Assembly: GCA_963664815.2 (NCBI GenBank)
Contig: CAXXHB010000003.1
Coordinates: forward strand, 1,312,001-1,376,000
Direction: 5' to 3'
DNA: 64,000 nt
Source: Spirochaetota bacterium
Lineage (GTDB): Bacteria > Spirochaetota > UBA4802 > UBA5550
Shown piece after piece: positions 47,865 through 63,358 of the stretch. Every line of letters starts with the position of its first letter. Within the stretch, counting starts at the first letter, position 1. The notes under the pieces are model-generated. The model ran no database searches. It saw only the letters and a list, made by a program, of their open reading frames with translations, and was not told where the DNA came from. Both the position numbers and the translations under genes were made by a program.

Positions 47865-47929
47865 GGTGTAGCATGGAGAAGAGTTTATCCCCGGCCTGAC
47901 GGCCAATACCCTGAATCCCGCAGGTGGCA

Positions 47930-48230
47930 AGGACTCCTCGGACCCCGCACCTACCCCAAGGGTACTTTGTCGCTACGCTCGGGCGCCCGGAAGGGGGCAA
48001 AGCTGAAATGTCTGTATAAGTATACCTTCGGCAGCATGGACTTATCGGACCCCGCACCCCTGAAAGGGGCAAGGCAGTATACAAATTTTATAAACCTGGT
48101 TTTAACCATTATTTTTTGAGCACACTCTGTCTATATAGTATACTTTCAGCAACCTGGACTTATCAGCCCCCGCACCCCCGGAGGTGGCAAAGCAGTATGC
48201 AAATTTGATAAACCTGTTTTATTAACATAT
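47930..48230. repeat. REP-like cluster with ~120-bp imperfect tandem duplication
   Basis: GGACTTATCxGxCCCCGCACCCC..GGCAAxGCAGTATxCAAATTTxATAAACCTG twice (about 48010 and 48129); related GGACCCCGCACC hairpin at 47940. Confidence 0.7.
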
Positions 48231-48891: not shown

Positions 48892-49085
48892 GTAGCGTGT
48901 TTGAGGCGTAATTGAAGCGAAATGTAAGCGAAACTGAATACTCTGTAAACAGAGTCGGGATTTTGTCATAAATCTGCAGTGAATTTGAATCTGAACCAGC
49001 TGATGCACGATGCAGACCTCATCCCCGGACCCTCTCCAAATGGCGAGGGGTGACTATAGCATTTCCGGTTTCAATTAAAAAACCA

Positions 49086-49997
49086 GGGGAGCGGTGTGGT
49101 TAAAGAAAAGGGAAGGTGCGGTTCCATCGCTGACACGGGTATATTGATAATATTAATATGTTTTAAGAAAACAGCTTTCCTGTAGTGGTCCCCTCGATAC
49201 ATTTCCAGTTTCACTGGAAACACTCGGGGAGCGGTGTGGTTTAAGAAACCGGGAGGAGCTGTTCCGGAATTAATCCTGATATATTGATAATATTAATAAG
49301 TTTTAAGAAAACAGTTTTCCAGTAGTGATCCCCTCGATACATTTCCAGTTTTACTTAAAAACACTCGGGGAGCGGTGTGGTTTAAGAAACCGGGAGGAGC
49401 TGTTCCGGAATTAATCCTGATATATTGATAATATTAATAAGTTTTAAGAAAACAGTTTTCCAGTAGTGATCCCCTCGATACATTTCCAGTTTCACTTAAA
49501 AACACTCGGGGAGCGGTGTGGTTTAAGAAACCGGGAGGAGCTGTTCCGGAATTAATCCTGATATATTGATAATATTAATAAGTTTTAAGAAAACAGTTTT
49601 CCAGTAGTGGTCCCCTCGATACGTTTCCAGTTTCACTGGAAACACTCGGGGAGCGGTGTGGTTAAAGAAAAGGGAAAAGGCGGTTCCGGAGCTGACACGG
49701 GTATATCGATAATATTAATATGTTTTAAGAAAACAGCTTTCCTGTAGTGGTCCCCTCGATACATTTCCAGTTTCACTGGAAACACTCGGGGAGCGGTGTG
49801 GTTTAAGAAACCGGGAGGAGCTGTTCCGGAATTAATCCTGATATATTGATAATATTAATAAGTTTTAAGAAAACAGTTTTCCAGTAGTGATCCCCTCGAT
49901 ACATTTCCAGTTTTACTTAAAAACACTCGGGGAACGGTGTGGTTTAAGAAACCGTAAAAGGTGGTTCCGGAGCTGATACGGGCATATTGATAATATT
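49086..49997. repeat. 140-141-bp tandem array (~6.5 units) of a REP-like hairpin
   Basis: GGGGAGCGGTGTGGTT recurs at about 49086, 49226, 49367, 49508, 49648, 49788, 49929; each unit has CCCCTCGA-TACATTTCCAGTTTCACTGGAAACAC-TCGGGGA. Confidence 0.9.
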
Positions 49998-50208
49998 CCA
50001 TTACGAATAGTAAAAAAACGATGTGCAGAGAGCACATGACCCAATGTCTGTTCACTATGCAGAAAATCCCGCCAATCTCTTAATCCTGTAATCGTGTTCA
50101 GACTATTGAGGTATATTCTGATGTAACGTTGATTTCAATTATATATACTTGACAGATGATCAATATTTTGTAAAATATATATATAAAGAGATTCCGGGGC
50201 ATAATATT

Positions 50209-50493
50209 ATGCATAAAAATGAAATCATTGTATTTTTAAGAAATAATAAAACATTTTTAAGGGAAAGATATAATGTTACCAGGATTGGTTTGTTCGGGTC
50301 ATATGCTGCAGGGAATCAGAGAGAGGAAAGTGATATTGATATTATAGTTTCAATGCCGTCAGAGTTTGATAATTACTATGATCTTAAAGAATACCTCGAA
50401 TCGAATTTAAAACATAAAATTGATCTTGCCCTTGAAAAAAACATACGTGAACTTATTAAAGGGAGTATTGAAAAAGAGGTTATTTATGCCTGA
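50209..50493 (+). CDS. Minimal nucleotidyltransferase antitoxin (MntA-like)
   Basis: IGLFGSYA.G.Q..ESDIDI (GSx10DxD); overlaps downstream HEPN gene. Confidence 0.88.
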   Translation: MHKNEIIVFLRNNKTFLRERYNVTRIGLFGSYAAGNQREESDIDIIVSMPSEFDNYYDLKEYLESNLKHKIDLALEKNIRELIKGSIEKEVIYA

Positions 50494-50914
50494 ACGTGAA
50501 ATATCTCTTTATATAATTGATATACTGATAGCAATAGACCGGATTAAAAGGTATACAGAAAATATTAATAACGCGTCTGATTTCATGAATAGTGAACTTG
50601 AATGGGACGCAACTATACGCGAGCTTCAAATCATCGGTGATGCGGCGAATATGCTTTTAAAGTATCAGATGATTGATCAATCTTACAGGAGAATTGTTGA
50701 CTTCAGAAATCAGATTACACATGCTTATTTTGGTATTGATAAAGATATTGTCTGGGAAGTAATAACTGAAAAGCTTCAGATATTTAATGATGATTTGATT
50801 GCTGTTGTAAAAACGAAAAAAATTGATTTAACAAAAGGTTTAGAAGCAGCTTTGAAAGAAAACAGCTCTAATCAGAAAGTTATAAGTTTTTTAAAATTCT
50901 TAAAAGAGATATAA
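50486..50914 (+). CDS. HEPN/DUF86 ribonuclease toxin (HepT-like)
   Basis: LQIIGDA, FRNQITHAYFGID (Rx4HxY), IVWE. Confidence 0.88.
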   Translation: MPEREISLYIIDILIAIDRIKRYTENINNASDFMNSELEWDATIRELQIIGDAANMLLKYQMIDQSYRRIVDFRNQITHAYFGIDKDIVWEVITEKLQIFNDDLIAVVKTKKIDLTKGLEAALKENSSNQKVISFLKFLKEI

Positions 50915-51237: not shown

Positions 51238-51899
51238 TCAATATGATTATATTTGTTTCCAACTTACTTTAAAAAGTATACGTGAACTTATTAAAGGGAG
51301 TATTGAAAAAGAGGTTATCTATGCCTGACCGTGATGATTGCTGTTGTAAAAACAAAAAGATTTCTCTTCATGATACAGCCTTGAGTTTAATTAAAGCCTC
51401 ATATATTGTCCTGCCCCTGTAGTCTGTCAAAGCTTGAGATGGTTATTTAACAGCGCCTTATAACGCCCCCCCGGCATCCCTGCTTGACATTAATACGTCA
51501 AAAACAGGGAAATTTAAAAATTTTCCGGGAAAAACAAAAAAAATTCTGATGTTGCTTCGCCGGATAGATGGCGAATACGTGGCGGATAAAAGGCATATAC
51601 ATGGCGACAGATGAGTATAATCACTGCAGCGTAATGCAGTTTTCGGCACGATTTGTGCATATAACACATAATATGTTTTTATTTCGCGGCAGCCAATTCA
51701 ACAAAGTGATTACCGGTTTTTTAAACAGGGGCAACTTTTTTGCAGGGTATAAGGGACGAAGCCACTTAAAAAAACCACTAAAGGTTTCCTGAGTGCTGCA
51801 AATGCCAATCTGGAAACAAGCCAGATATTTATTTGAATATTTGAAAAAAAGTATTGAAATAACTGCTGTTTAATGAAGGAATAAATTAAATGCATACAG

Positions 51900-52187
51900 A
51901 CCAATCCGGCAGGGATCATCATGGAAACCGTTTATTAAAAGATAAGGAGAAGGGGAGTTGCAACAGGGAATATTAGTGCGGACTGGTTTCAACGGGATGT
52001 TGTAAATGCCGGGACGGAAAACAGTTAAAGATAACTCATCAAGGGATAAATTTACTACACAACTGCCTGAATAAGATAACGAAAAATACAGAAACTATCA
52101 GGACGGTAAAGTCCTGATACAATTATGATTTATACACATGTATGTACGGGGAAATCCGGGATTATTAAGAGTCCACTGGAGATATAG
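51900..52187 (+). pseudogene. Decayed tyrosine integrase (IntI-like) C-terminus; 5' limit approximate
   Basis: FTTQLPE*...IQKLSGR*SPDTIMIYTHVCTGKSGIIKSPLEI* mirrors FATHLLE..IQELLGH....TMIYTHV......SPLD; contains stops and a frameshift. Confidence 0.7.
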
Positions 52188-52269
52188 GGGTTACTGTACG
52201 TAACTTCTTTCGCTTTTTTCCGGATTTTTCCTGTGTTGTGCGAAAGATTTTGGATAGGACAAGTTATAT
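52188..52269 (+). other. attI-like recombination region (crossover G/TT at 52263)
   Basis: Directly after the integrase remnant; GTTATATGC at 52263 is complementary to GCATATAAC closing the first cassette; internal TCTTTCGC/GCGAAAGA inverted repeat. Confidence 0.55.
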
Positions 52270-52322
52270 GCAATTGCCCCCCTTTATGTTTATTAAGGGA
52301 TCGTTTATATAGAAGGATTTTT

Positions 52323-53933
52323 ATGTATAGTGTAAACAATGAAATTGTCAAGAAAGCCATTAAATTTTTAAAAAAAGATATCTATGATGACTGGTTTTGT
52401 GACATTCAAAACTTTGATGACATTTTTAATGACATCAATAATATAACCAATATAATAAATGATAAGATTAGAAGTGGAAAAGGTATTTATTTAGCAGATA
52501 ATCCAATACTATTTAATATCCCAAAAGAAAATGGTGCGTTCAGATATACATTAGAGCTATGTCCATTAGACAGATTAGCATATCATATATTTGGAATTCA
52601 ATTGATTCATTATTTAGATCGCTCCCTTCCATTCAATGTTTTAGGTCATCGAAAAAATTTAGATGATAAAATGTTATTCAAACCAATGATTGAGCAATGG
52701 AATAAATTTGAAAATTATACAAGGATTTCTGGAATAAATAAACATATAATCCAAACAGATATTTCAAATTATTTCGATTATATAAATATTAACAGACTCA
52801 GAATCGAATTAATCAACTCGGCATCTGATGCAAATCTATCTTCTGAAGACTTTGTAAATTGTATTTATGCAATAGAGTCGATATTTTCAATATTAAAACA
52901 AATATCATTCGATGGAGAAAGAGGCTTACCTCAAAATAAAGATATATCTTCATTTTTAGCAAATATATACATGAGACCACTTGATAAATGCTTAAAGGAT
53001 GCAATTTATTTTAGATATATGGATGATATACGAATTATAGCTGATACTAGAGCAGATGCTAACCGCTATATGCTTTGCATAATTGAAGAATTAAGAAAAT
53101 GTGGCTTATCATTAAATAGTAGCAAAACAAAAATTTTAATTCCGAACAGTCAAGAGCACTCACATTTTTGTTTTGAAATGGATTTAGAGGCAAAAAAAAC
53201 TGATTCACTGTTTAACAGTGGAAAAAGAAAATACGTAATGGAGTCATTTAATATAATTTATTCCAATGTTCTTAAATATCTTGATGAAAGTAAAGTTAAT
53301 GAAAGAAAATTTCGTTTTTACTCCAATAGATTAATTACATTTTTAAATGCAAAAGATGTTAAAGTACCAAATAAATTTAAAAAAGAGATTTCTAGCAAAT
53401 TAATTGGAGTTATTACGGCAAAACCAGATTCAGCTGATAAAATATGTGCTTTAGTAAAAGCCATTGGACCTTTTAAAAAGCTACAAGATGATCTCGTCAA
53501 GTGGGCAGTAACACCTGATAATTTAACATATGAATGGGCAGTATATACAATTATAAAAACACTTATAATACAATCCTATAAATCAAAAACTTTGGATAAT
53601 TATTGTAAAGCTTGTTTAAATGATATTAACACTCCTGATAATATTAGGGGTATCTCAGCTGTATATTTAAATAAAAAAGCAAAAAAATCTATCATTAACT
53701 TACTATCAAGAAATAATTCACATTTTTTCCAAAGACATTTAATAATCGCACTGTCAGAAATGAAACCAGATATTCTTTTACAAAATGATATTTCAGAAAA
53801 AATAATACCGGACTTTAAAGGGCAACACCAGAATCTATATAAACTTTCTTTGAATGCTAACTTTTTATATGTAAAAGAACATGAACGAATCACACAAAGA
53901 GAATTGATTCAAGAGTTGAAAAATTATGCTTAA
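52323..53933 (+). CDS. Reverse transcriptase, UG/Abi (defence-associated)-like, with helical C-terminal extension
   Basis: IPKENGAFR, QTDISNYFDYI, GLPQNKDISSFLANIYM, YFRYMDDIRI, GLSLNSSKT; AGAAGGA SD before ATG 52323; no retron VTG motif, no intron maturase context. Confidence 0.92.
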   Translation: MYSVNNEIVKKAIKFLKKDIYDDWFCDIQNFDDIFNDINNITNIINDKIRSGKGIYLADNPILFNIPKENGAFRYTLELCPLDRLAYHIFGIQLIHYLDRSLPFNVLGHRKNLDDKMLFKPMIEQWNKFENYTRISGINKHIIQTDISNYFDYININRLRIELINSASDANLSSEDFVNCIYAIESIFSILKQISFDGERGLPQNKDISSFLANIYMRPLDKCLKDAIYFRYMDDIRIIADTRADANRYMLCIIEELRKCGLSLNSSKTKILIPNSQEHSHFCFEMDLEAKKTDSLFNSGKRKYVMESFNIIYSNVLKYLDESKVNERKFRFYSNRLITFLNAKDVKVPNKFKKEISSKLIGVITAKPDSADKICALVKAIGPFKKLQDDLVKWAVTPDNLTYEWAVYTIIKTLIIQSYKSKTLDNYCKACLNDINTPDNIRGISAVYLNKKAKKSIINLLSRNNSHFFQRHLIIALSEMKPDILLQNDISEKIIPDFKGQHQNLYKLSLNANFLYVKEHERITQRELIQELKNYA

Positions 53934-55494
53934 TATTGCAATATTTTTTAATAACTCTCTTGAGTCGATTCCATTTGCATTAACTTTAATTAATAATAAA
54001 GTTAGAATTATTAGAGATTTTAGACGCATAAGTTTCCCAGATAATATTATTACATTAGGATACACTGACACTATTGATTCATTTAGAAATCAAAATATTC
54101 CATTTAATGCAACTCAAAGAAGAATTGAAATTTTATATGCTTTAACAATATACTATTCTAAGGGTGACCAGTCGAAAAAATGGAAATTTCGTAAACCTGA
54201 AATCATAGGAAAATTTATAGAACCTTCTTTAATCACCAGGCTGAAACAATATGAAAATAATGAAATATCATGGAATGAATTTAGTAAAATTCTTTTTAAT
54301 CAAAAGACAAATTTATTAACTGCAGTTGATAACGTATATAATCAACTTATTACCGAATATACAAAAAATTCACTAATTAAACTGGCTTGGCTTGAAACAG
54401 AATTTTTTATTGATAATTATTTTTTAATTAATCAATATAATGGAATCATGGTTGATAAAAATAAAATTGAAAAACAGCTATATGATATGAACTTTCAAAA
54501 ATATTCTGCATTATTGTATTTAGAAAAGAATTATAATATGGATATTTCAAGTTCATATTTATCTGATGAAAAAATAGACGAACTTATACTTTCTGAGTAT
54601 AAAGATTTCGAACAAACAGAAGAAATTACTAATTTAATTCAAGTGGTTAATACTTCTGATAAAAGAATTGAATCAATAACTACAGTTAAAGAATGTCGTA
54701 TTGATTACGCAAATCTGATCAAACATTATTCTGCCGATGATATCCCATATGTATACCCACAATATGATGTCATTGGCAGTAGTAGTGGTAGAATCTTTAT
54801 TGCAAGCCCAGGTACACAATACTTAAAAAAATCAAGAAGAGACATATTTTCAGCACAAAAGAATCATACCCTTACATATTTTGATTTTAGAAATTATGAA
54901 CCTGGCATCGTTGCAGGTCTATCAAATGATAAAGATTTTATAAAATATTACAATTCAGGAGATATGTATTCAAAAATTGCATCTGAAGTTTATAATGACC
55001 CCGAAAAAAGAAAAGATGTAAAAATTTCAATTCTTATGTTATTATATGGTATGTCTACAGAATCCTTGCATAACTTTTTTAAAAATAATAGTAATTTTAA
55101 TCCTGATGGTGTTATTCATATTTTAAATGGTTTTATACAACTACAAGAATGGAAAAAAAGCATTTTGGACGATGTATTGAATAAATATGCTGTTATTGAT
55201 AAAACATATACAAGAAAGTTTTTACCAAATAGTGATTGGAAAATTAAAACATCCGCAGTTAACCATATAATACAATCAACTGGTTCTCGGATTCTAAAGC
55301 GTTGCATTAAAGAAATTGTTAATATTGAAGGAATTAAAATACTAATACCAATGCACGATGCACTTCTATGTGAAATTATTGATAACAAATATGTTGAGAT
55401 TAAAGAACAAGTAATTCATAAAATGGAGAGCATCTTTACTGATGAAGTAACGCATACTTCCTCCAAAGTAATCGTAACGGATTTTTCATCGTAA
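53926..55494 (+). CDS. Stand-alone family A DNA polymerase (polymerase domain, no 5'-3' exonuclease)
   Basis: SSGRIFIASPGTQ, motif A DFRNYEP, motif B RKDVKISILMLLYGM, AVNHIIQSTGS, motif C MHDALL; 8-nt overlap with RT (ATGCTTAA). Confidence 0.9.
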   Translation: MLNIAIFFNNSLESIPFALTLINNKVRIIRDFRRISFPDNIITLGYTDTIDSFRNQNIPFNATQRRIEILYALTIYYSKGDQSKKWKFRKPEIIGKFIEPSLITRLKQYENNEISWNEFSKILFNQKTNLLTAVDNVYNQLITEYTKNSLIKLAWLETEFFIDNYFLINQYNGIMVDKNKIEKQLYDMNFQKYSALLYLEKNYNMDISSSYLSDEKIDELILSEYKDFEQTEEITNLIQVVNTSDKRIESITTVKECRIDYANLIKHYSADDIPYVYPQYDVIGSSSGRIFIASPGTQYLKKSRRDIFSAQKNHTLTYFDFRNYEPGIVAGLSNDKDFIKYYNSGDMYSKIASEVYNDPEKRKDVKISILMLLYGMSTESLHNFFKNNSNFNPDGVIHILNGFIQLQEWKKSILDDVLNKYAVIDKTYTRKFLPNSDWKIKTSAVNHIIQSTGSRILKRCIKEIVNIEGIKILIPMHDALLCEIIDNKYVEIKEQVIHKMESIFTDEVTHTSSKVIVTDFSS

Positions 55495-55564
55495 ATTCAC
55501 GGTTCTGTAAAAATTATTAGTATATAAATAAATATATGCTAATGTTTAACTCGGGGGCAACTGC

Positions 55565-55689
55565 ATATAACTTATAGAAGTCTTAACGATGTTGCCTCAA
55601 AAAAACCGCTAATCTTTATTAGCGGTATAAAAACATTAAACAGATAATTTCAATCTTCAGACAACAGCTATGTTAAGACTCTGTTGGAC
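55565..55689 (+). repeat. attC-like site, long type, copy 1
   Basis: TAAC..AGTCTTAACGATGTTG...CAACAGCTATGTTAAGACT..GTTGGAC; near-identical copies at 58119, 61989, 63383. Confidence 0.8.
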
Positions 55690-55700
55690 GAAACCACTGG

Positions 55701-55792
55701 GATCGAACAGTATATATAGGAATTTGAATGGGGGGAGAGGAGAGAATAGAAGAGGGCATCTTTGATCGAACAGTATATATAGGAATTTGAAT
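55701..55792. repeat. 29-bp direct repeat GATCGAACAGTATATATAGGAATTTGAAT, probable IS91-like end
   Basis: Identical at 55701-55729 and 55764-55792, downstream of the IS91-type transposase. Confidence 0.7.
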
Positions 55793-56004
55793 CCGTTTTC
55801 TCCCGATCTTTGAAAGAACATACAGTAATAATCCGGTGATTTTACCGGAAAAAATAATAATCCCGTAAAATAATTATTTCTATAGTTATCTGATAGACTG
55901 TGAATGGCGATTTTATGCAAAATCTCAAAAGCTCCGGGCATACTTATCCTCTCTATGAAACAGTTTTTTAAATTTGTGAAGTATAGCTATACTCTTTATA
56001 ACAG

Positions 56005-56586
56005 CTAACCGTAAGTCGACAGGCCATGGATATAATGAATGTGTCCCTTTTCGCACTCCCTGCAGAGAGTTATATCAATCCTGAAATATTTCCAGAACAG
56101 AAATGCCGTATCCTCAAGAAGCTCTTTGCTTCGCTCATCCTGCTCCGCCAGGGGCTGACCAAGAAACATCCGGCAAAGGGCAAGATTGTTTGCCCTGTTA
56201 CGGTTTTCCATAAAACCGAAGAACCGGACTTTTTTAAATCCTTTAGGAAGAATATGCAGTACCAGACGTTTCATAAATTGAATCTCTGTAACAACCTCCA
56301 TTTTACTCTGCTTCCTTTTTCTATTGTAATAGCGGATGTAAACATTTCCATTCTCCGCTTTCTGTATCCGTTTATCACTGACTGCACTTTTAGCAACGTA
56401 TCTTGAAAGATAGCGGACTATGTTTTCCGGTTTCCTTTTATCTTTGCCGGGAAGCTGGGAGTTTACAACCCATGGAATATGCGCAAGCTGATTAAAAAGC
56501 TTTGCAATATCTTCAATACCGTCAGGTGTCTTTAAAGAACCGTTTTTAAGTTCTTTGCCGAGGTGGAATAAAAGCATTTTTCTGAA
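56005..56586 (-). pseudogene. IS91-family (Y2) transposase, C-terminal fragment
   Basis: WVVN..., VRYLSRYV...AVSDKRI, FMKRLVLHILPKGFKKVRFFG, terminal CRECEKG; N-terminus lost at the intron junction. Confidence 0.85.
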
Positions 56587-56980
56587 TGTCAAAGGAAGCC
56601 TTTAAAAATCCCGATACTGTTCTTATTCAGGCTCTATGGAGATGGGGCAGATTCAGACACTCGATGAAAAATTCTTTATGGCTTAAAAACCTGTACTGGA
56701 AACGCATAGGAAACAGGGACTTAAACTTTCTGCTCTGATGAGGAGATTCTTATTACTGCAGGACACAATAAAATTGTACGGCACAGAATGATAAGTCTTG
56801 ACAGGAACCCATTTTTAAAAGAATATTCTGATTATTTCTACTATAGGAAAATGGGAATACAAACAGATAACAGCGGCTGGTTGTATAGAGAGCTTAAGAC
56901 GGCTTGAGCCGTATGAAGGGAAAGTTTCACGTACGGTTCTTATGGGGGGAAGGGGGTGCGAGCTTCCTGACCTACCAGAC
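56587..56980 (+). mobile_element. 5'-truncated group II intron remnant 1 (decayed maturase end plus domains V-VI)
   Basis: SKEAF..DTVL.QALWRW, KIVRHRMISLDRNPF; DV GAGCCGTATGAAGGGAAAGTTTCACGTACGGTTC; DVI ending CCTACCAGAC. Confidence 0.85.
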
Positions 56981-57030
56981 TTTTCACCTGAATGCCGGAG
57001 ACATCGGTAACTCATAAAAGGATCGTATTT

Positions 57031-58104: not shown

Positions 58105-58118
58105 AAAGTGAAAACTGC

Positions 58119-58226
58119 ACACAACTTATAGAAGTCTTAACGTAGTTGCCTCAAAAAAACCGCTAATCTTTATTAGCGATATAAAAACATTAAACAGATA
58201 ATTTCAATCTTCAGACAGCAGCTATG
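58119..58226 (+). repeat. attC-like site, long type, copy 2 (3'-truncated)
   Basis: Matches copy 1 up to GCAGCTATG, then jumps into sequence similar to 55897-55917. Confidence 0.75.
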
Positions 58227-58414
58227 ACCGTGAATAGCGATTTTGTGGATAGTGTCGCATTGTATAAAATAACTGTCTTGATTATTTATGAAAAGAATAG
58301 TATAAAGGTATATAAAGTACTGTAGAGTATTACTTATATCCGAAGATTTTATCTGTCAAACATTTAAAAAATCACTCTTTCGTACGCGGTAATGATTTAA
58401 ACGAGGGAATATTT

Positions 58415-59236
58415 GTGTTAATATATAAAGACAAATTTACTACTTTTCAGAAAGAAAATACGAAAACATCATATCAATCAACAATTGAAAATTTTGAATA
58501 CTTTTTGTGTAAGACATATAATTCTGAAATTAATGAAAACAATATAACAAGGACACAGATGATAAGTTATAATCAGTATCTAGTTAATATTTTTAATGAG
58601 GAAAGAACAATTTCAACACATATTTATGGGATAAGATCTTATTTTAAATTTTTATACAGGAAAGGTTATATTGAAAGTGATCCATCGACAATTCTTGAAT
58701 CACCACAGATTAAAAGAAAATCACCAATAATAATTACTCCCGAAGATCTTGAACAAATGCTAGATTTTCGATTAAATTCATTAGAAGATTACAGATTAAG
58801 AGTAATCATATTAATACTGTATTATACAGGATTAAAAGTCTCAGAATTAGTAGAATTAGAAATTGATGATGTTAAAGAGAATACATTAGTAGTTAAAAAT
58901 CAATTCAGTGGTTTTAGAGAACTACCATTGAATGGTGTTACGATCCAGTCAATAAATCAATATCTACTTCAAAGAGATGAGTTAAATGTATATTCACAAT
59001 ATTTAATTCACAGCAAGAAAGGAAGCATGCTAAATAGAAAATCATTATGGAGAATTTTAAATAGATTTACTGATAAAGAAAAATTTGGAAGCGATATAAA
59101 TCCAAATACTTTTAGAGAAAATTATATTATAAATAAACTTTGTGAACTACAGTATTTTTTAGGTTATGATAATTTGGGTAGCTTAATGAATTATATTCAT
59201 GAACATATAAAATATCAAAAGACTAGTGAAGACTAG
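58415..59236 (+). CDS. XerC/D-like tyrosine recombinase with degenerate catalytic residues
   Basis: SAM-like N-domain (IYGIRSYFKFL), YYTGLKVSEL, NPNTFRENY, LQYFLGY; GTG start. Confidence 0.75.
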   Translation: MLIYKDKFTTFQKENTKTSYQSTIENFEYFLCKTYNSEINENNITRTQMISYNQYLVNIFNEERTISTHIYGIRSYFKFLYRKGYIESDPSTILESPQIKRKSPIIITPEDLEQMLDFRLNSLEDYRLRVIILILYYTGLKVSELVELEIDDVKENTLVVKNQFSGFRELPLNGVTIQSINQYLLQRDELNVYSQYLIHSKKGSMLNRKSLWRILNRFTDKEKFGSDINPNTFRENYIINKLCELQYFLGYDNLGSLMNYIHEHIKYQKTSED

Positions 59237-60312: not shown

Positions 60313-60386
60313 AGAATATCTATTTTAACCAGATGTATGTATTCCGGCCCAAACCTGCCACCCATTCCGGTTTTAGTCTGCCTCAC

Positions 60387-60808
60387 TGTCAAATGAAGCC
60401 TTTTAAAAATACCGATACTGTTCTTTTTCAGGCTCTATGGAGATGGCGCAGATTCAGGCACCCGATGAAAAAATATTTTATAGCTTAAAAAACGATGCTT
60501 TCAAACACATATGAAAAATGGACTTAAACTTTCTGTACTGATGATGAGATTCTTATATCTGCAGGACAGACACATTAAAATTGTACGGCACAGAATGATA
60601 ATTCTTGACAGGAACCCATTTTTAAAAGAAGATTCTGATTATTTCTGCTATAGAAAAATTGGAATACAAATGCTAACAGCGACTGGTATAGAGAGCTTAT
60701 GACAGCTTGAGCCGTATGAAAGGCGACCGGGGGAAGTGCCTGTGGTAAAAACTTTCACGAACGGTTCTTATGGGGGAAAGGGAGTGTAAACTCCCTGACC
60801 TACCAGAC
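60387..60808 (+). mobile_element. 5'-truncated group II intron remnant 2
   Basis: Homologous to 56587-56980 from the same TGTCAAA start; IKIVRHRMIILDRNPF; DV carries an insertion; ends CCTACCAGAC. Confidence 0.85.
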
Positions 60809-60849
60809 TTTTCGGGTGTATGAAACGGATTAGGCAAAAAGGAAAACTA

Positions 60850-61947
60850 ATGAATGACAAGTGGATGAAATTACTACTACGTTGGAAAAATATTCCAAAA
60901 GTGGAATTAAGTCGCACATCTTTTGAGATTGCGGGGTATCCTCATTTAGAAAATGTTAGTAGTAATATTTTAGCATTCTATTTTTGTGATGAAAACGAAC
61001 ATAATCTTGGAGACCTTTTTTTAAAATCAATACTCGAAATTATTTCAAGTTCAAACCATGATTCTTTTTCATTTGAGAACATTACTGTCCAAAAAGAAAT
61101 TACTACTGACGAAGGGAAAAGAATTGATTTGATAATAGAAACACCTGAATACTTAATTGGTATTGAAAATAAACTTTTTAGCTGGCTTCATAACGACCTA
61201 ACAAACTACCGAAAGCATCTAGAAAACTCAAAAAAATATGATAAGCAAAAAATATTTGCTGTAGTTTTATCGTTAAATCGACTTGATGACGATTTTTCAA
61301 GAAATAAAATCAATTCTAATGAATTTATTAATATTACTTATGACGATTTATTTTCTCGAGTAAGAAAAAATATTGGTGATTACATAAATAATTCAAATGA
61401 AAGATATTCACGAATACTACTTGAGTACATTGAAACAATAGAAAATTTAAAAGGAAGAAATATGGAAAATAAAGAAATGGAATTATTCTTTCAAGAACAT
61501 AAAGAGGATTTGAATGAACTAACACATAAATACAACGAATATTTACAACGTATCAGCAATAAAATATATGACTTGAAAAACATTATGTCAGAATTGGAAT
61601 TTTTTCGAACATTCAATAGAGAATGGATTTATGATAAATGTTGCTTGGTTTATGATTATTTAATAGATAATAATAGTGTTTCTATAGATACATACATTGG
61701 TACCGATGGCTGGTCTGTGGAACTCTTTGGAAGAAATACAAAATCTTCCTCTTATATTAATACAGAATTGATTTCAAATCATGAGCTATTAAGTATTGTA
61801 AATAATAATATAAAGAAAAGTGGCCGTAATGGAATAATAATATATGAAAATAGAGACATAAATGCTATTGAATCAACGAGTAAGAAACTATTAGAATTGA
61901 TAATTTTTCTTGAAAAAATAAAATCAGATAAAGGAAGTAATGCCTAA
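60850..61947 (+). CDS. PD-(D/E)XK nuclease family protein (PDDEXK_4-like)
   Basis: ENVSSNILAF, HNLGDLFL, KE...KRIDLII..IGIENK..HNDL..Y. Confidence 0.85.
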   Translation: MNDKWMKLLLRWKNIPKVELSRTSFEIAGYPHLENVSSNILAFYFCDENEHNLGDLFLKSILEIISSSNHDSFSFENITVQKEITTDEGKRIDLIIETPEYLIGIENKLFSWLHNDLTNYRKHLENSKKYDKQKIFAVVLSLNRLDDDFSRNKINSNEFINITYDDLFSRVRKNIGDYINNSNERYSRILLEYIETIENLKGRNMENKEMELFFQEHKEDLNELTHKYNEYLQRISNKIYDLKNIMSELEFFRTFNREWIYDKCCLVYDYLIDNNSVSIDTYIGTDGWSVELFGRNTKSSSYINTELISNHELLSIVNNNIKKSGRNGIIIYENRDINAIESTSKKLLELIIFLEKIKSDKGSNA

Positions 61948-61988: not shown

Positions 61989-62172
61989 GCACAACGTATA
62001 GAAGTCTTAACGTAGCTGCCTCAAAAAAACTGCTGGTCTTTATCAGCGGTATAAAAATATTAAGCAAATAATTTTAATTTCAGAGAGCAGCTATGTTAAG
62101 ACTTTTGTTGGACGAAACAACTGATATCTCAATCGGAGAAGATTGATTAAGATACTCTTCTTAACGTTATGT
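61989..62172 (+). repeat. Composite: long attC-like copy 3 + GTTGGACGAAACAACTG scar + partial short attC
   Basis: Direct comparison with 55565-55699 and 59617-59664. Confidence 0.8.
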
Positions 62173-62200: not shown

Positions 62201-63358
62201 ATGAGTCAAAAAATTATGAATGAAATAAATATATTATTAGAAAAAATAAAACTCATTATCAAGTATAACGCAAATTTTTTTGAAAATGAGAATACTAATT
62301 TTAACATATTTCATGTTTGCGGTGTGAATCATTATGAAAATACTCATTCATCAATAATTGCTGAGTTTTTTAAAACTGATGGAACACATGGTTTTAAAGA
62401 AAAGTTTTTAAAGGCGTTTTTAGACGTTCTTTTATCTGAGAAAATAATAGATAATAATTTTAATTTTTCATTTTCTAATGTAAAAGTTAAAACTGAATTT
62501 ATTATTAATAATGGACGTATTGATATTATAATTACTAACACTGAAAAACAGGCTATAATAATTGAAAATAAAATTTATGCAGAAGATCAATTCAAACAGT
62601 TAAAACGTTATTCAGATTATGGTAAACAAGAATTCAAACAAAATTTTATTCTACTGTATCTTACATTGTTTGGTGATGAAGCATCTGAACAAAGCAGACA
62701 GAATGTAGAATATAAACAAATATCTTACAATCATATTGTAATCGAATGGTTGGAAAGATGTGTTGAAATATCAGCTCGTAATGCAGTAGTTAGAGAAACA
62801 TTAATTCAATATATCAATTATATAAAAAAACTAACAGGTCAAGATATGAAAACTCGAAGCAATAATGAATTGATTGAATTTTTAAGTAAAAAAGAAAATA
62901 TACAAGCCGCATTATTAATTGGGCAGAACATTAATGCTGTTATAAATAATATTGTTAATAATATATTCATCCCACAACTTACAAATCTTTGTAATGAATT
63001 AAATCTAATTAATATGTCATCAGAATGTGATTGGTTTAATGAATCATGGGCTGGATTTCAAATTAAAAATCCTAATTGGAAGTATTTTAAAATAGCATTA
63101 GAATTTGAAGCAAAAGGATTAAGAAATTGTATTATCGGATTTAATCATATTGATATTAAAGAAAGAAATGACATAACATTTAATGAACTTAAAAATCTTA
63201 TGAAAAGAAATAATACTAATTGGGCGTGGAATGATTTTCCTGTCTATCAGAGTTGGAATAATGATGCAATTATTGCAATTTTAAATGGAGAAATGGCTGA
63301 AATTTTTAAAACAGAAATAAAAAAATTACTTGATATTACGAATAATTTGACAATGTAA
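62201..63358 (+). CDS. PD-(D/E)XK nuclease family protein (PDDEXK_4-like)
   Basis: FNIF, ENTHSSIIA, HGFKEKFL, TE...GRIDIII..IIIENKIYAEDQFKQLKRY, LYLTLFG. Confidence 0.9.
   Translation: MSQKIMNEINILLEKIKLIIKYNANFFENENTNFNIFHVCGVNHYENTHSSIIAEFFKTDGTHGFKEKFLKAFLDVLLSEKIIDNNFNFSFSNVKVKTEFIINNGRIDIIITNTEKQAIIIENKIYAEDQFKQLKRYSDYGKQEFKQNFILLYLTLFGDEASEQSRQNVEYKQISYNHIVIEWLERCVEISARNAVVRETLIQYINYIKKLTGQDMKTRSNNELIEFLSKKENIQAALLIGQNINAVINNIVNNIFIPQLTNLCNELNLINMSSECDWFNESWAGFQIKNPNWKYFKIALEFEAKGLRNCIIGFNHIDIKERNDITFNELKNLMKRNNTNWAWNDFPVYQSWNNDAIIAILNGEMAEIFKTEIKKLLDITNNLTM

Follow-up and report, generated by a model that had tools for sequence, protein, structure and literature searches.

Two overlapping genes of a Spirochaetota bacterium, one for a reverse transcriptase (RT) and one for a family-A DNA polymerase, are described here. 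They lie in a stretch of 64,000 nucleotides (contig CAXXHB010000003.1, positions 1,312,001 to 1,376,000 of the forward strand), which is called the window in the following. Judged by profile matches, the pair almost certainly belongs to the UG9-small class of defence-associated RT (DRT) systems, and the locus is a real, intact and mobile copy of such a system. A role of the pair in defence is probable. As one best explanation, to which we assign a probability of roughly 0.55, the UG9-small pair would work as a complex that makes protein-primed single-stranded DNA (ssDNA) and converts it to duplex DNA. The two genes are:

52323..53933, + strand: UG9-small reverse transcriptase, 536 aa from ATG; class 1 UG/Abi enzyme with an RT core and a helical C-terminal domain
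53926..55494, + strand: RT-associated family-A DNA polymerase, 522 aa; Klenow/Bst large-fragment architecture with a vestigial exonuclease domain and no 5′ nuclease

Identity, linkage and transfer of the gene pair

Both open reading frames (ORFs) and the 8-nt overlap between the 3′ end of the RT gene and the 5′ end of the polymerase gene agree with an earlier reading of the same DNA (the original prediction). An alternative, longer RT frame from a GTG start at 52233 would begin outside the transferred unit described below, and the homologs are likewise 536 aa long. The RT was matched over nearly its full length by the PADLOC profile RT_UG9_small (372.9 bits, E 7.4e-112, residues 10-535 on profile positions 13-540 of 541), followed by UG9_large (194.8 bits, the match beginning only at profile position 245) and UG21 (150.7 bits), while RT_UG10_large gave only 67 bits. 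The best match of the polymerase was RTasPolA, again in full length (326.6 bits, E 6.9e-98, profile positions 6-474 of 475), a profile on which the genome's own Pol I reached 116.7 bits. A Pfam scan returned RVT_1 for the RT (57.8 bits), DNA_pol_A for the polymerase (70.1 bits, cut-off 34.3) and nothing else; neither protein exceeded the cut-offs of NCBIfam. The marks of the UG9-large variant, an N-terminal trypsin-like protease on the RT and an MBL hydrolase encoded upstream, are both absent, and only a recombinase remnant and non-coding DNA precede the RT gene.

The original prediction had proposed a candidate new system. Since existing PADLOC profiles match both proteins and the linkage is already in print, the pair is not new but UG9-small with its RT-associated PolA; the remark that surveys had noted UG RTs beside PolA-like genes proved correct. 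In Mestre 2022 (PMC9226505), UG9 is described as working with a family-A polymerase, as enriched in defence islands and as a predicted but not validated defence gene, and 60 of its 79 members are assigned to the small variant, which carries neither protease nor MBL hydrolase. According to Simon & Zimmerly 2008 (PMC2602772), UG9 corresponds to lineage D of Kojima & Kanehisa 2008, whose survey noted RT lineages flanked by DNA polymerase A. The UG9 pairing is catalogued as a likely anti-phage system, with a mechanism so far unexplained in the literature searched.

For the analysis of linkage, a profile built from 44 RTs was used, which recovered 262 relatives in species-representative genomes, and the best 80 of these 262 loci were kept. 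The relatives were retrieved through RT peptides alone. Among the loci kept, the RT is consistently linked to the polymerase: in 78 of the 80 loci, all from other species, its gene lies directly downstream on the same strand, and the remaining two loci (L050, L057) end right after the RT gene. Some of the 78 polymerase genes are partial, being at contig ends or having broken frames. A TAT-Gnn-stop junction, and hence the same 8-nt overlap, is present in 57 of 73 loci. No third gene recurs within 4 kb of the pair in the 80 loci, the largest flank cluster spanning three of them. When loci were searched with the polymerase protein alone, no relatives emerged, whereas an alignment-based search found four. 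At an identity level of 50% and E up to 1e-30, the polymerase family comprises 140 clusters, most of which by far hold proteins of 510-550 aa.

One relative is located on the conjugative plasmid pDSHI01 of Dinoroseobacter shibae, where the genes are annotated as 'RNA-directed DNA polymerase' and 'DNA polymerase', and the closest named homolog stems from a Spirochaetae metagenome-assembled genome (MAG). In a set of 401 host-phylum genomes, the full-length polymerase was found in just two, the genome studied here and G328, which belongs to another genus of the same family. The other matches listed for this set represent housekeeping Pol I, scoring no more than 172.5 bits in frames of about 600-1060 aa, and the three genomes of the same genus gave no match. 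On a Treponemataceae MAG contig (L013/L036) the RT is split over three frames next to a whole polymerase, which may reflect a decaying copy or assembly errors. A sigma-70 promoter scan gave 35 sites vs 28.0 in shuffled sequences (standard deviation 5.8), which is not above the shuffles.

The window and G328 have only positions 52267-55535 in common, at 90.5% nucleotide identity, and no further similarity to G328 was found within 19 kb on either side of the unit. Judged by eye, the similarity to G328 sets in again with the right arm of the inverted repeat (IR) that encloses the pair:

52261..52281, no strand: left IR arm; the outer GTTATAT... also occurs at a paralogous recombinase locus, the inner 8 nt are the unit's own
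55553..55573, no strand: right IR arm; the inner 8 nt are the unit's own, the outer ...ATATAAC is the start of the array repeat

The arms originally placed at 52263-52281 and 55553-55571 are real and extend to 20 matching positions of 21. The IR pattern has two matches in the window vs 0.04 expected, and two matches were reached in none of 100 shuffles. A long flanking IR was seen in only 2 of 71 loci tested (the window and L049) and is not a trait of the family. In G328 the unit sits behind an attC-like hairpin whose last letters are GTTATGC; when that locus was scanned for inverted repeats at short range, nothing informative came up. The housekeeping Pol I shows 66% identity to its counterpart in G328 and 82% to that of a same-genus genome lacking the pair. 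Because RT and polymerase are far more alike in the two genomes (see the protein identities below) than Pol I with its 66%, the two genes have moved horizontally as one unit. Indeed, the IR-bounded unit recurs in another genus between unrelated flanks, as expected from the original claim that both genes move as one cassette, and the whole unit most likely travels as a cassette of site-specific recombination. Both genes are under purifying selection: compared with the G328 homologs, protein identity is 92.9% for the RT (dN/dS 0.10) and 87.7% for the polymerase (dN/dS 0.17).

Structure models and proposed mode of action

The RT model (pLDDT 91.2) shows an RT core followed by helices across residues 288-535, and all core motifs are kept. 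This agrees with the YMDD and GLPQ motifs, present in the translation, and the helical C-terminal tail that had been noticed before. The modelled architecture, an RT core with a helical repeat (alpha-Rep) domain, is that of class 1. The best full-length fold matches were UG15/DRT4, AbiK, DRT6, AbiA and Abi-P2 (TMq 0.51-0.58; Abi-P2 0.44), and in its modelled fold the RT thus resembles DRT4, AbiK and DRT6, class 1 enzymes that are protein-primed. The PDB sequence set contained no UG9 chain that we could find, and similarity in sequence to its class 1 RTs is limited to the RT core. Abi-type RTs are described as protein-primed and untemplated (bioRxiv 2026.02.16.706125; PMC9508834).

These matches bear on a classical two-step retro-synthesis, in which the RT would copy its own mRNA or a host or phage RNA and the polymerase would make the second strand, yielding a defined double-stranded DNA (dsDNA). 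The complete set of RT core motifs fits such a scheme, as do class 2 DRTs, for which the use of RNA templates is described (PMC12483538; PMC13174585), and the second-strand step needs a dedicated DNA-dependent polymerase like the one encoded here. However, the RT resembles in full-length profile and fold the class 1 enzymes described as untemplated. Furthermore, the transferred unit of 3.3 kb has only about 59 nt before the RT gene and about 77 nt after the polymerase gene, too little to hold a template RNA gene of its own, and Rfam revealed no RNA family in or adjoining the pair. Two-step retro-synthesis is therefore unlikely.

Priming from C-terminal tyrosines is described for DRT9 (PMC12483538), and in UG10 the priming tyrosine lies in the first helix of the repeat domain (bioRxiv 2026.02.16.706125). 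Y535, Y408 and Y75 of the RT are therefore regarded as candidate priming residues only. Tyr535 is the penultimate residue of the RT and lies within the low-confidence tail of the model. Position 535 is occupied by Tyr in 42 of 44 aligned RTs, and 101 of 115 full-length RT homologs have a Tyr among their last four residues; one RT clade ends with F-I-S instead. A mere by-product of the polymerase start embedded in the RT gene does not fully account for the penultimate Tyr, as six loci keep a C-terminal Tyr without the ATG.

The polymerase model (pLDDT 90.5, from an alignment of 82 sequences) superposes with residues 1-522 on the large fragments of Bst and Taq polymerases (VIA-align Z 30.0, root mean square deviation 3.2 Å, 500 aligned residues), and Foldseek gave TMq values of 0.72-0.80 for Bst-type matches. 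The N-terminus had been called unrecognisable, which is true of its sequence but not of its structure: because the model aligns from residue 1 onward, this part can be assigned to a domain at the exonuclease position and the first helices of the polymerase domain. A 5′-3′ exonuclease domain is missing, as predicted.

Among the 82 polymerase sequences the catalytic aspartates D320 and D478 are invariant, as are E325, R362 and K366, and H477, A479, Y374 and G375 nearly so. Motif A is represented by D320 with E325 at the steric-gate position, motif B by the O-helix residues R362, K366 and Y374 with G375, and motif C by H477-D478-A479. Motif C, described before as intact, is so at the metal-binding Asp, but throughout the family it reads HDA vs HDE. 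In an alignment to the genome's own Pol I, motif A is DFRNYE vs DYSQIE, motif C differs in the same way, and in motif B Leu370 stands where the own Pol I has Phe. We infer that these changes may influence fidelity or rate. Proofreading sites are a feature of some family-A members and not a requirement of the family. Within residues 1-262 just three columns of the 82 sequences are at least 70% acidic, and in the polymerase studied here the sole acidic column close to the N-terminus (residue 66) is occupied by Arg. As the exonuclease region of the 82 sequences contains no conserved acidic set corresponding to the four-acidic-residue 3′-5′ proofreading site, proofreading is lost. On the basis of its model, the polymerase corresponds to an entire large fragment of Klenow/Bst type, in which the exonuclease domain is dead and the active site complete.

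With these features the polymerase could itself be the effector, activated or primed by the RT and poisoning phage or host replication by aberrant extension or by strand displacement at forks. The loss of the proofreading site, the family-wide alterations in motifs B and C and the lack of any other effector in the small variant would suit this role. UG9-large, however, is described as keeping the polymerase while adding a protease and an MBL nuclease (PMC9226505, and a 2025 preprint that treats this protease-nuclease pair). As the larger variant adds a protease-gated nuclease, the RT-polymerase pair seems to be the part that senses or makes a signal rather than the part that kills, and a polymerase effector is improbable.

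Complex formation was predicted for the full-length RT and polymerase residues 1-262, using unpaired alignments made for this analysis and three controls. The ipSAE values were 0.72, 0.74 and 0.77 (median 0.74), and the best of the three controls reached 0.00; the runs share at least 76% of their contacts, with partner pLDDT of at least 70. The prediction thus passed. Of 80 solved complexes 58 attain the same mark, and of 110 mismatched pairs 2 do so; these rates are only rough here because alignments made for this analysis were used. Contacts are predicted between RT residues 104-136, 284-310 and 340-352 and polymerase residues 11-14, 51-55, 111-118 and 178-209. It is moderately probable that RT and polymerase form a complex.

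In the mechanism that we propose for the UG9-small pair, translational coupling would allow RT and polymerase to be made together and to form a complex, the N-terminal 260 residues of the polymerase (dead exonuclease domain and first long helices) docking on the RT. At phage infection the RT, like its structural relatives, would make ssDNA without an RNA template, primed from a tyrosine of its own. The 3′ end of this ssDNA would be handed to the polymerase, which has neither primase nor proofreading activity and would extend the RT-made end, so that fold-back or second-strand extension would give duplex DNA. Either the protein-linked DNA product or the drain from making it would stop phage growth. 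By analogy with other systems the hand-off from RT to polymerase, with conversion of ssDNA to duplex, is conceivable and is put forward tentatively. The cooperation of two polymerases, the central idea of the original prediction, fits the strict linkage, the conserved 8-nt overlap and the outcome of the complex prediction, albeit for a known system. The original prediction was also right that two polymerases of different superfamilies make up one conserved pair of genes, which is mobile and belongs among the defence RTs of the UG/Abi type.

Several points weigh against this mechanism. Family-A enzymes need a primer-template, and there is no evident way for a semi-random strand to supply it. 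As motif C lacks the glutamate of the own Pol I, the activity of the polymerase could be weak or altered. The complex prediction used a truncated polymerase and unpaired alignments, and the predicted interface residues are not more conserved in broad alignments (entropy 2.32 vs 1.97 for the RT and 3.07 vs 2.92 for the polymerase) and differ only slightly from the rest within the close subfamily, where they are the more conserved ones (1.01 vs 1.29, with 5% of random sets as low). The conservation of Tyr535 is partly forced, because the sequence TAT-G contains the ATG of the polymerase. Searches with Pfam and PADLOC and the clustering of flanking genes yielded no recognisable effector in the small variant. 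Finally, neither a phage assay nor a nucleic-acid product nor expression data were found for any UG9 system in the literature searched.

Cassette array and neighbouring elements

The unit lies at the head of an array, next to the following features:

52080..52187, + strand: tyrosine recombinase remnant, last 36 codons, in the same orientation as the array
52188..52262, + strand: recombinase-proximal conserved spacer in attI-like position, ending at the left boundary of the unit
55565..55705, + strand: first copy of the array repeat, about 140 nt, attC-like candidate

The recombinase remnant was detected by tblastn with an intact paralog of 357 aa from the same genome (residues 322-357, 69% identity, E 2e-8). 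This paralog scored 235.3 bits on NF040815 ('tyrosine recombinase/integron integrase', cut-off 220) and 220.7 bits on the integron-integrase model TIGR02249 (cut-off 265), the latter match being split in two, with profile positions 180-234 left out. The TIGR02249 cut-off is not reached by any gene of the genome, and a canonical IntI is not found by the array. Between window positions 52060-52275 and the 3′ end of the paralog with its downstream DNA, mean column identity is 82%; the conservation extends to 52273, through AGTTATATGCAA, and then ends, with a different first gene at the paralogous locus.

The array repeat (about 140-180 nt) has 32 matches in the genome. Eight near-identical copies on the + strand cover about 20 kb from the unit onward, those in the window being at 55559, 58113, 61993 and 63381, and none lies upstream of the RT gene. 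ORFs on the + strand are found between the copies, which gives a one-directional array with each unit ending in a site. Further arrays exist elsewhere in the genome, two of them adjoining recombinase genes. The recombinase remnant and the conserved spacer directly upstream and repeat copies only downstream support the first array position that had been proposed for the unit.

Uninterrupted repeat copies end with GTTATGT or GTTATAC just before the next ORF. Since they end likewise, the outer halves of the IR (GTTATAT... and ...ATATAAC) are taken to be the site boxes of the array. R-box-like ends are thus found at the repeat start (...ATATAAC) and at the unit starts (GTTATAT, GTTATGT, GTTATAC). 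The alternative that the IR represents terminal repeats of a transposon was rejected in view of these array sites in the outer arm halves and of the occurrence of the long IR in two loci only. The repeat folds into a central hairpin with side stems and not into a single long attC-type stem. The attC assignment of the original prediction is plausible but unproven. The wider cassette claim largely held, with the reservations that the recombinase stays under the integron-integrase cut-off and the repeat is not a textbook attC. We therefore call the array integron-like.

Neighbouring cassettes carry further defence candidates, PDC-S26 twice and one MNT/HepT pair. The genes at 60820-61947 and 62201-63358 encode PD-(D/E)XK proteins of the PADLOC candidate family PDC-S26 (295 and 293 bits), each followed by an array repeat. 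The nucleotidyltransferase/HepT (MNT-HEPN type) gene pair is located at 50149-50914, with a decayed second copy of its gene junction 835 nt downstream (51271-51363) and seven tandem units of 140-141 nt, 71-100% alike, upstream (49062-49997). Three copies of another repeat of about 107-118 nt with a GC-rich core lie between a TetR gene and the next ORF (47927-48220). In the stretch 58113-59236, the second copy of the array repeat lacks about 190 nt present in other copies, and behind it, inside the array, lies a XerD-like recombinase gene. This gene reached 139 bits, where the cut-off is 329.6, and only 28.5 bits with the model for integron integrases.

Right after the first array repeat, a repeated element of 1.28 kb is found (55706-56985), with a related stretch at 60382-60808. 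It shares its strand with the cassette ORFs and ends in a group II intron domain V/VI (RF00029, 59.9 bits at 56904-56980, and again with 42.9 bits at 60707-60808), and it carries on the opposite strand a fragment of an IS91-type transposase (56005..56592). The genome contains four full copies and many forms of about 0.57 kb without the middle part. For group IIC-attC introns, by contrast, insertion into the bottom strand is described (PMC3001079). With a transposase fragment next to the first copy, the array repeat might have formed one end of an IS91-type element; this was rejected, as the fragment belongs to this separate 1.28-kb insertion, which is absent at the copies at 61993 and 63381.

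A pair in such surroundings might serve its own spread or the genesis of cassettes, with dsDNA made from RNA being captured by the recombinase and no part in defence. An IR-bounded unit that has moved between genera would be in line with such a selfish element, as would its place at the head of an array that also holds relics of group II intron-like ribozymes. Nevertheless, as the ends of the unit coincide with the site boxes of the array, its movement is explained by the recombinase; moreover the long IR is rare among the loci, relatives occur in many non-array contexts, including the conjugative plasmid, and UG9 is reported to be enriched in defence islands (PMC9226505). A selfish element is thus highly improbable. 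Barely credible is the variant in which the pair is a self-contained factory from RNA to duplex DNA at array position 1, which would supply dsDNA for new cassettes, defence being either secondary or wrongly assumed; a cassette would then itself encode the step of cassette genesis that has long been sought.

Relation to known systems

In the literature searched, UG9 is among the last large UG/Abi groups for which we found no experiment and the only one that we found described with a family-A polymerase partner. DRT3 and DRT7 were recently shown to defend by odd DNA from two cooperating polymerase activities, and the mechanism of UG9 would test whether their logic reaches a Pol I-type enzyme. 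The present copy offers several handles: the unit is minimal, with 3.3 kb and defined ends, a docking surface is predicted, the proofreading domain is dead, motif C reads HDA family-wide and the C-terminal tyrosine is conserved. A two-gene defence candidate of this size also extends the cargo of integron-like arrays beyond the well-studied Vibrio and clinical integrons.

The closest system is UG9-small itself, listed under DRT in PADLOC, with the same full-length profiles, gene order and overlap and with neither protease nor MBL gene. Nothing that defines this family differs here; what sets this copy apart is the host phylum and the setting in a cassette array. DRT11 is a name used in a paper that deals with UG5.

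AbiK, Abi-P2, AbiA, DRT4/UG15 and DRT6 are the best structural matches over the RT core and the helical C-terminal domain, but none of them has a polymerase partner; they work singly or together with effectors of another kind. In DRT7, poly(T) made by the RT is described as primer and template for a fused primase-polymerase (10.64898/2026.04.18.719102). Like the pair studied here, DRT7/UG10 combines a class 1 RT with a second DNA polymerase, and for it a hand-off of the protein-primed product, leading to duplex-like DNA, is published; its partner, however, is a fused primase-polymerase of archaeo-eukaryotic type, whereas here it is a separate family-A enzyme unable to prime. DRT3, in which the RTs Drt3a and Drt3b are described as cooperating to make double-stranded DNA (PMC13174585), is similar in having two cooperating polymerases with such a product. 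Both of its enzymes are RTs and one uses a non-coding RNA, whereas the second enzyme here is DNA-dependent and no RNA gene is present.

Integron cassettes are known to carry anti-phage systems (review PMC13434031, on Darracq 2025 and Kieffer 2025). With such defence-carrying integrons the locus shares a one-directional array, a near-identical repeat per unit, a recombinase at the head and cargo of defence type. It differs in that no recombinase reaches the integron-integrase cut-off, the repeat of about 140-180 nt lacks a single attC-type hairpin, and the decayed recombinase gene points in the same direction as the cassettes.

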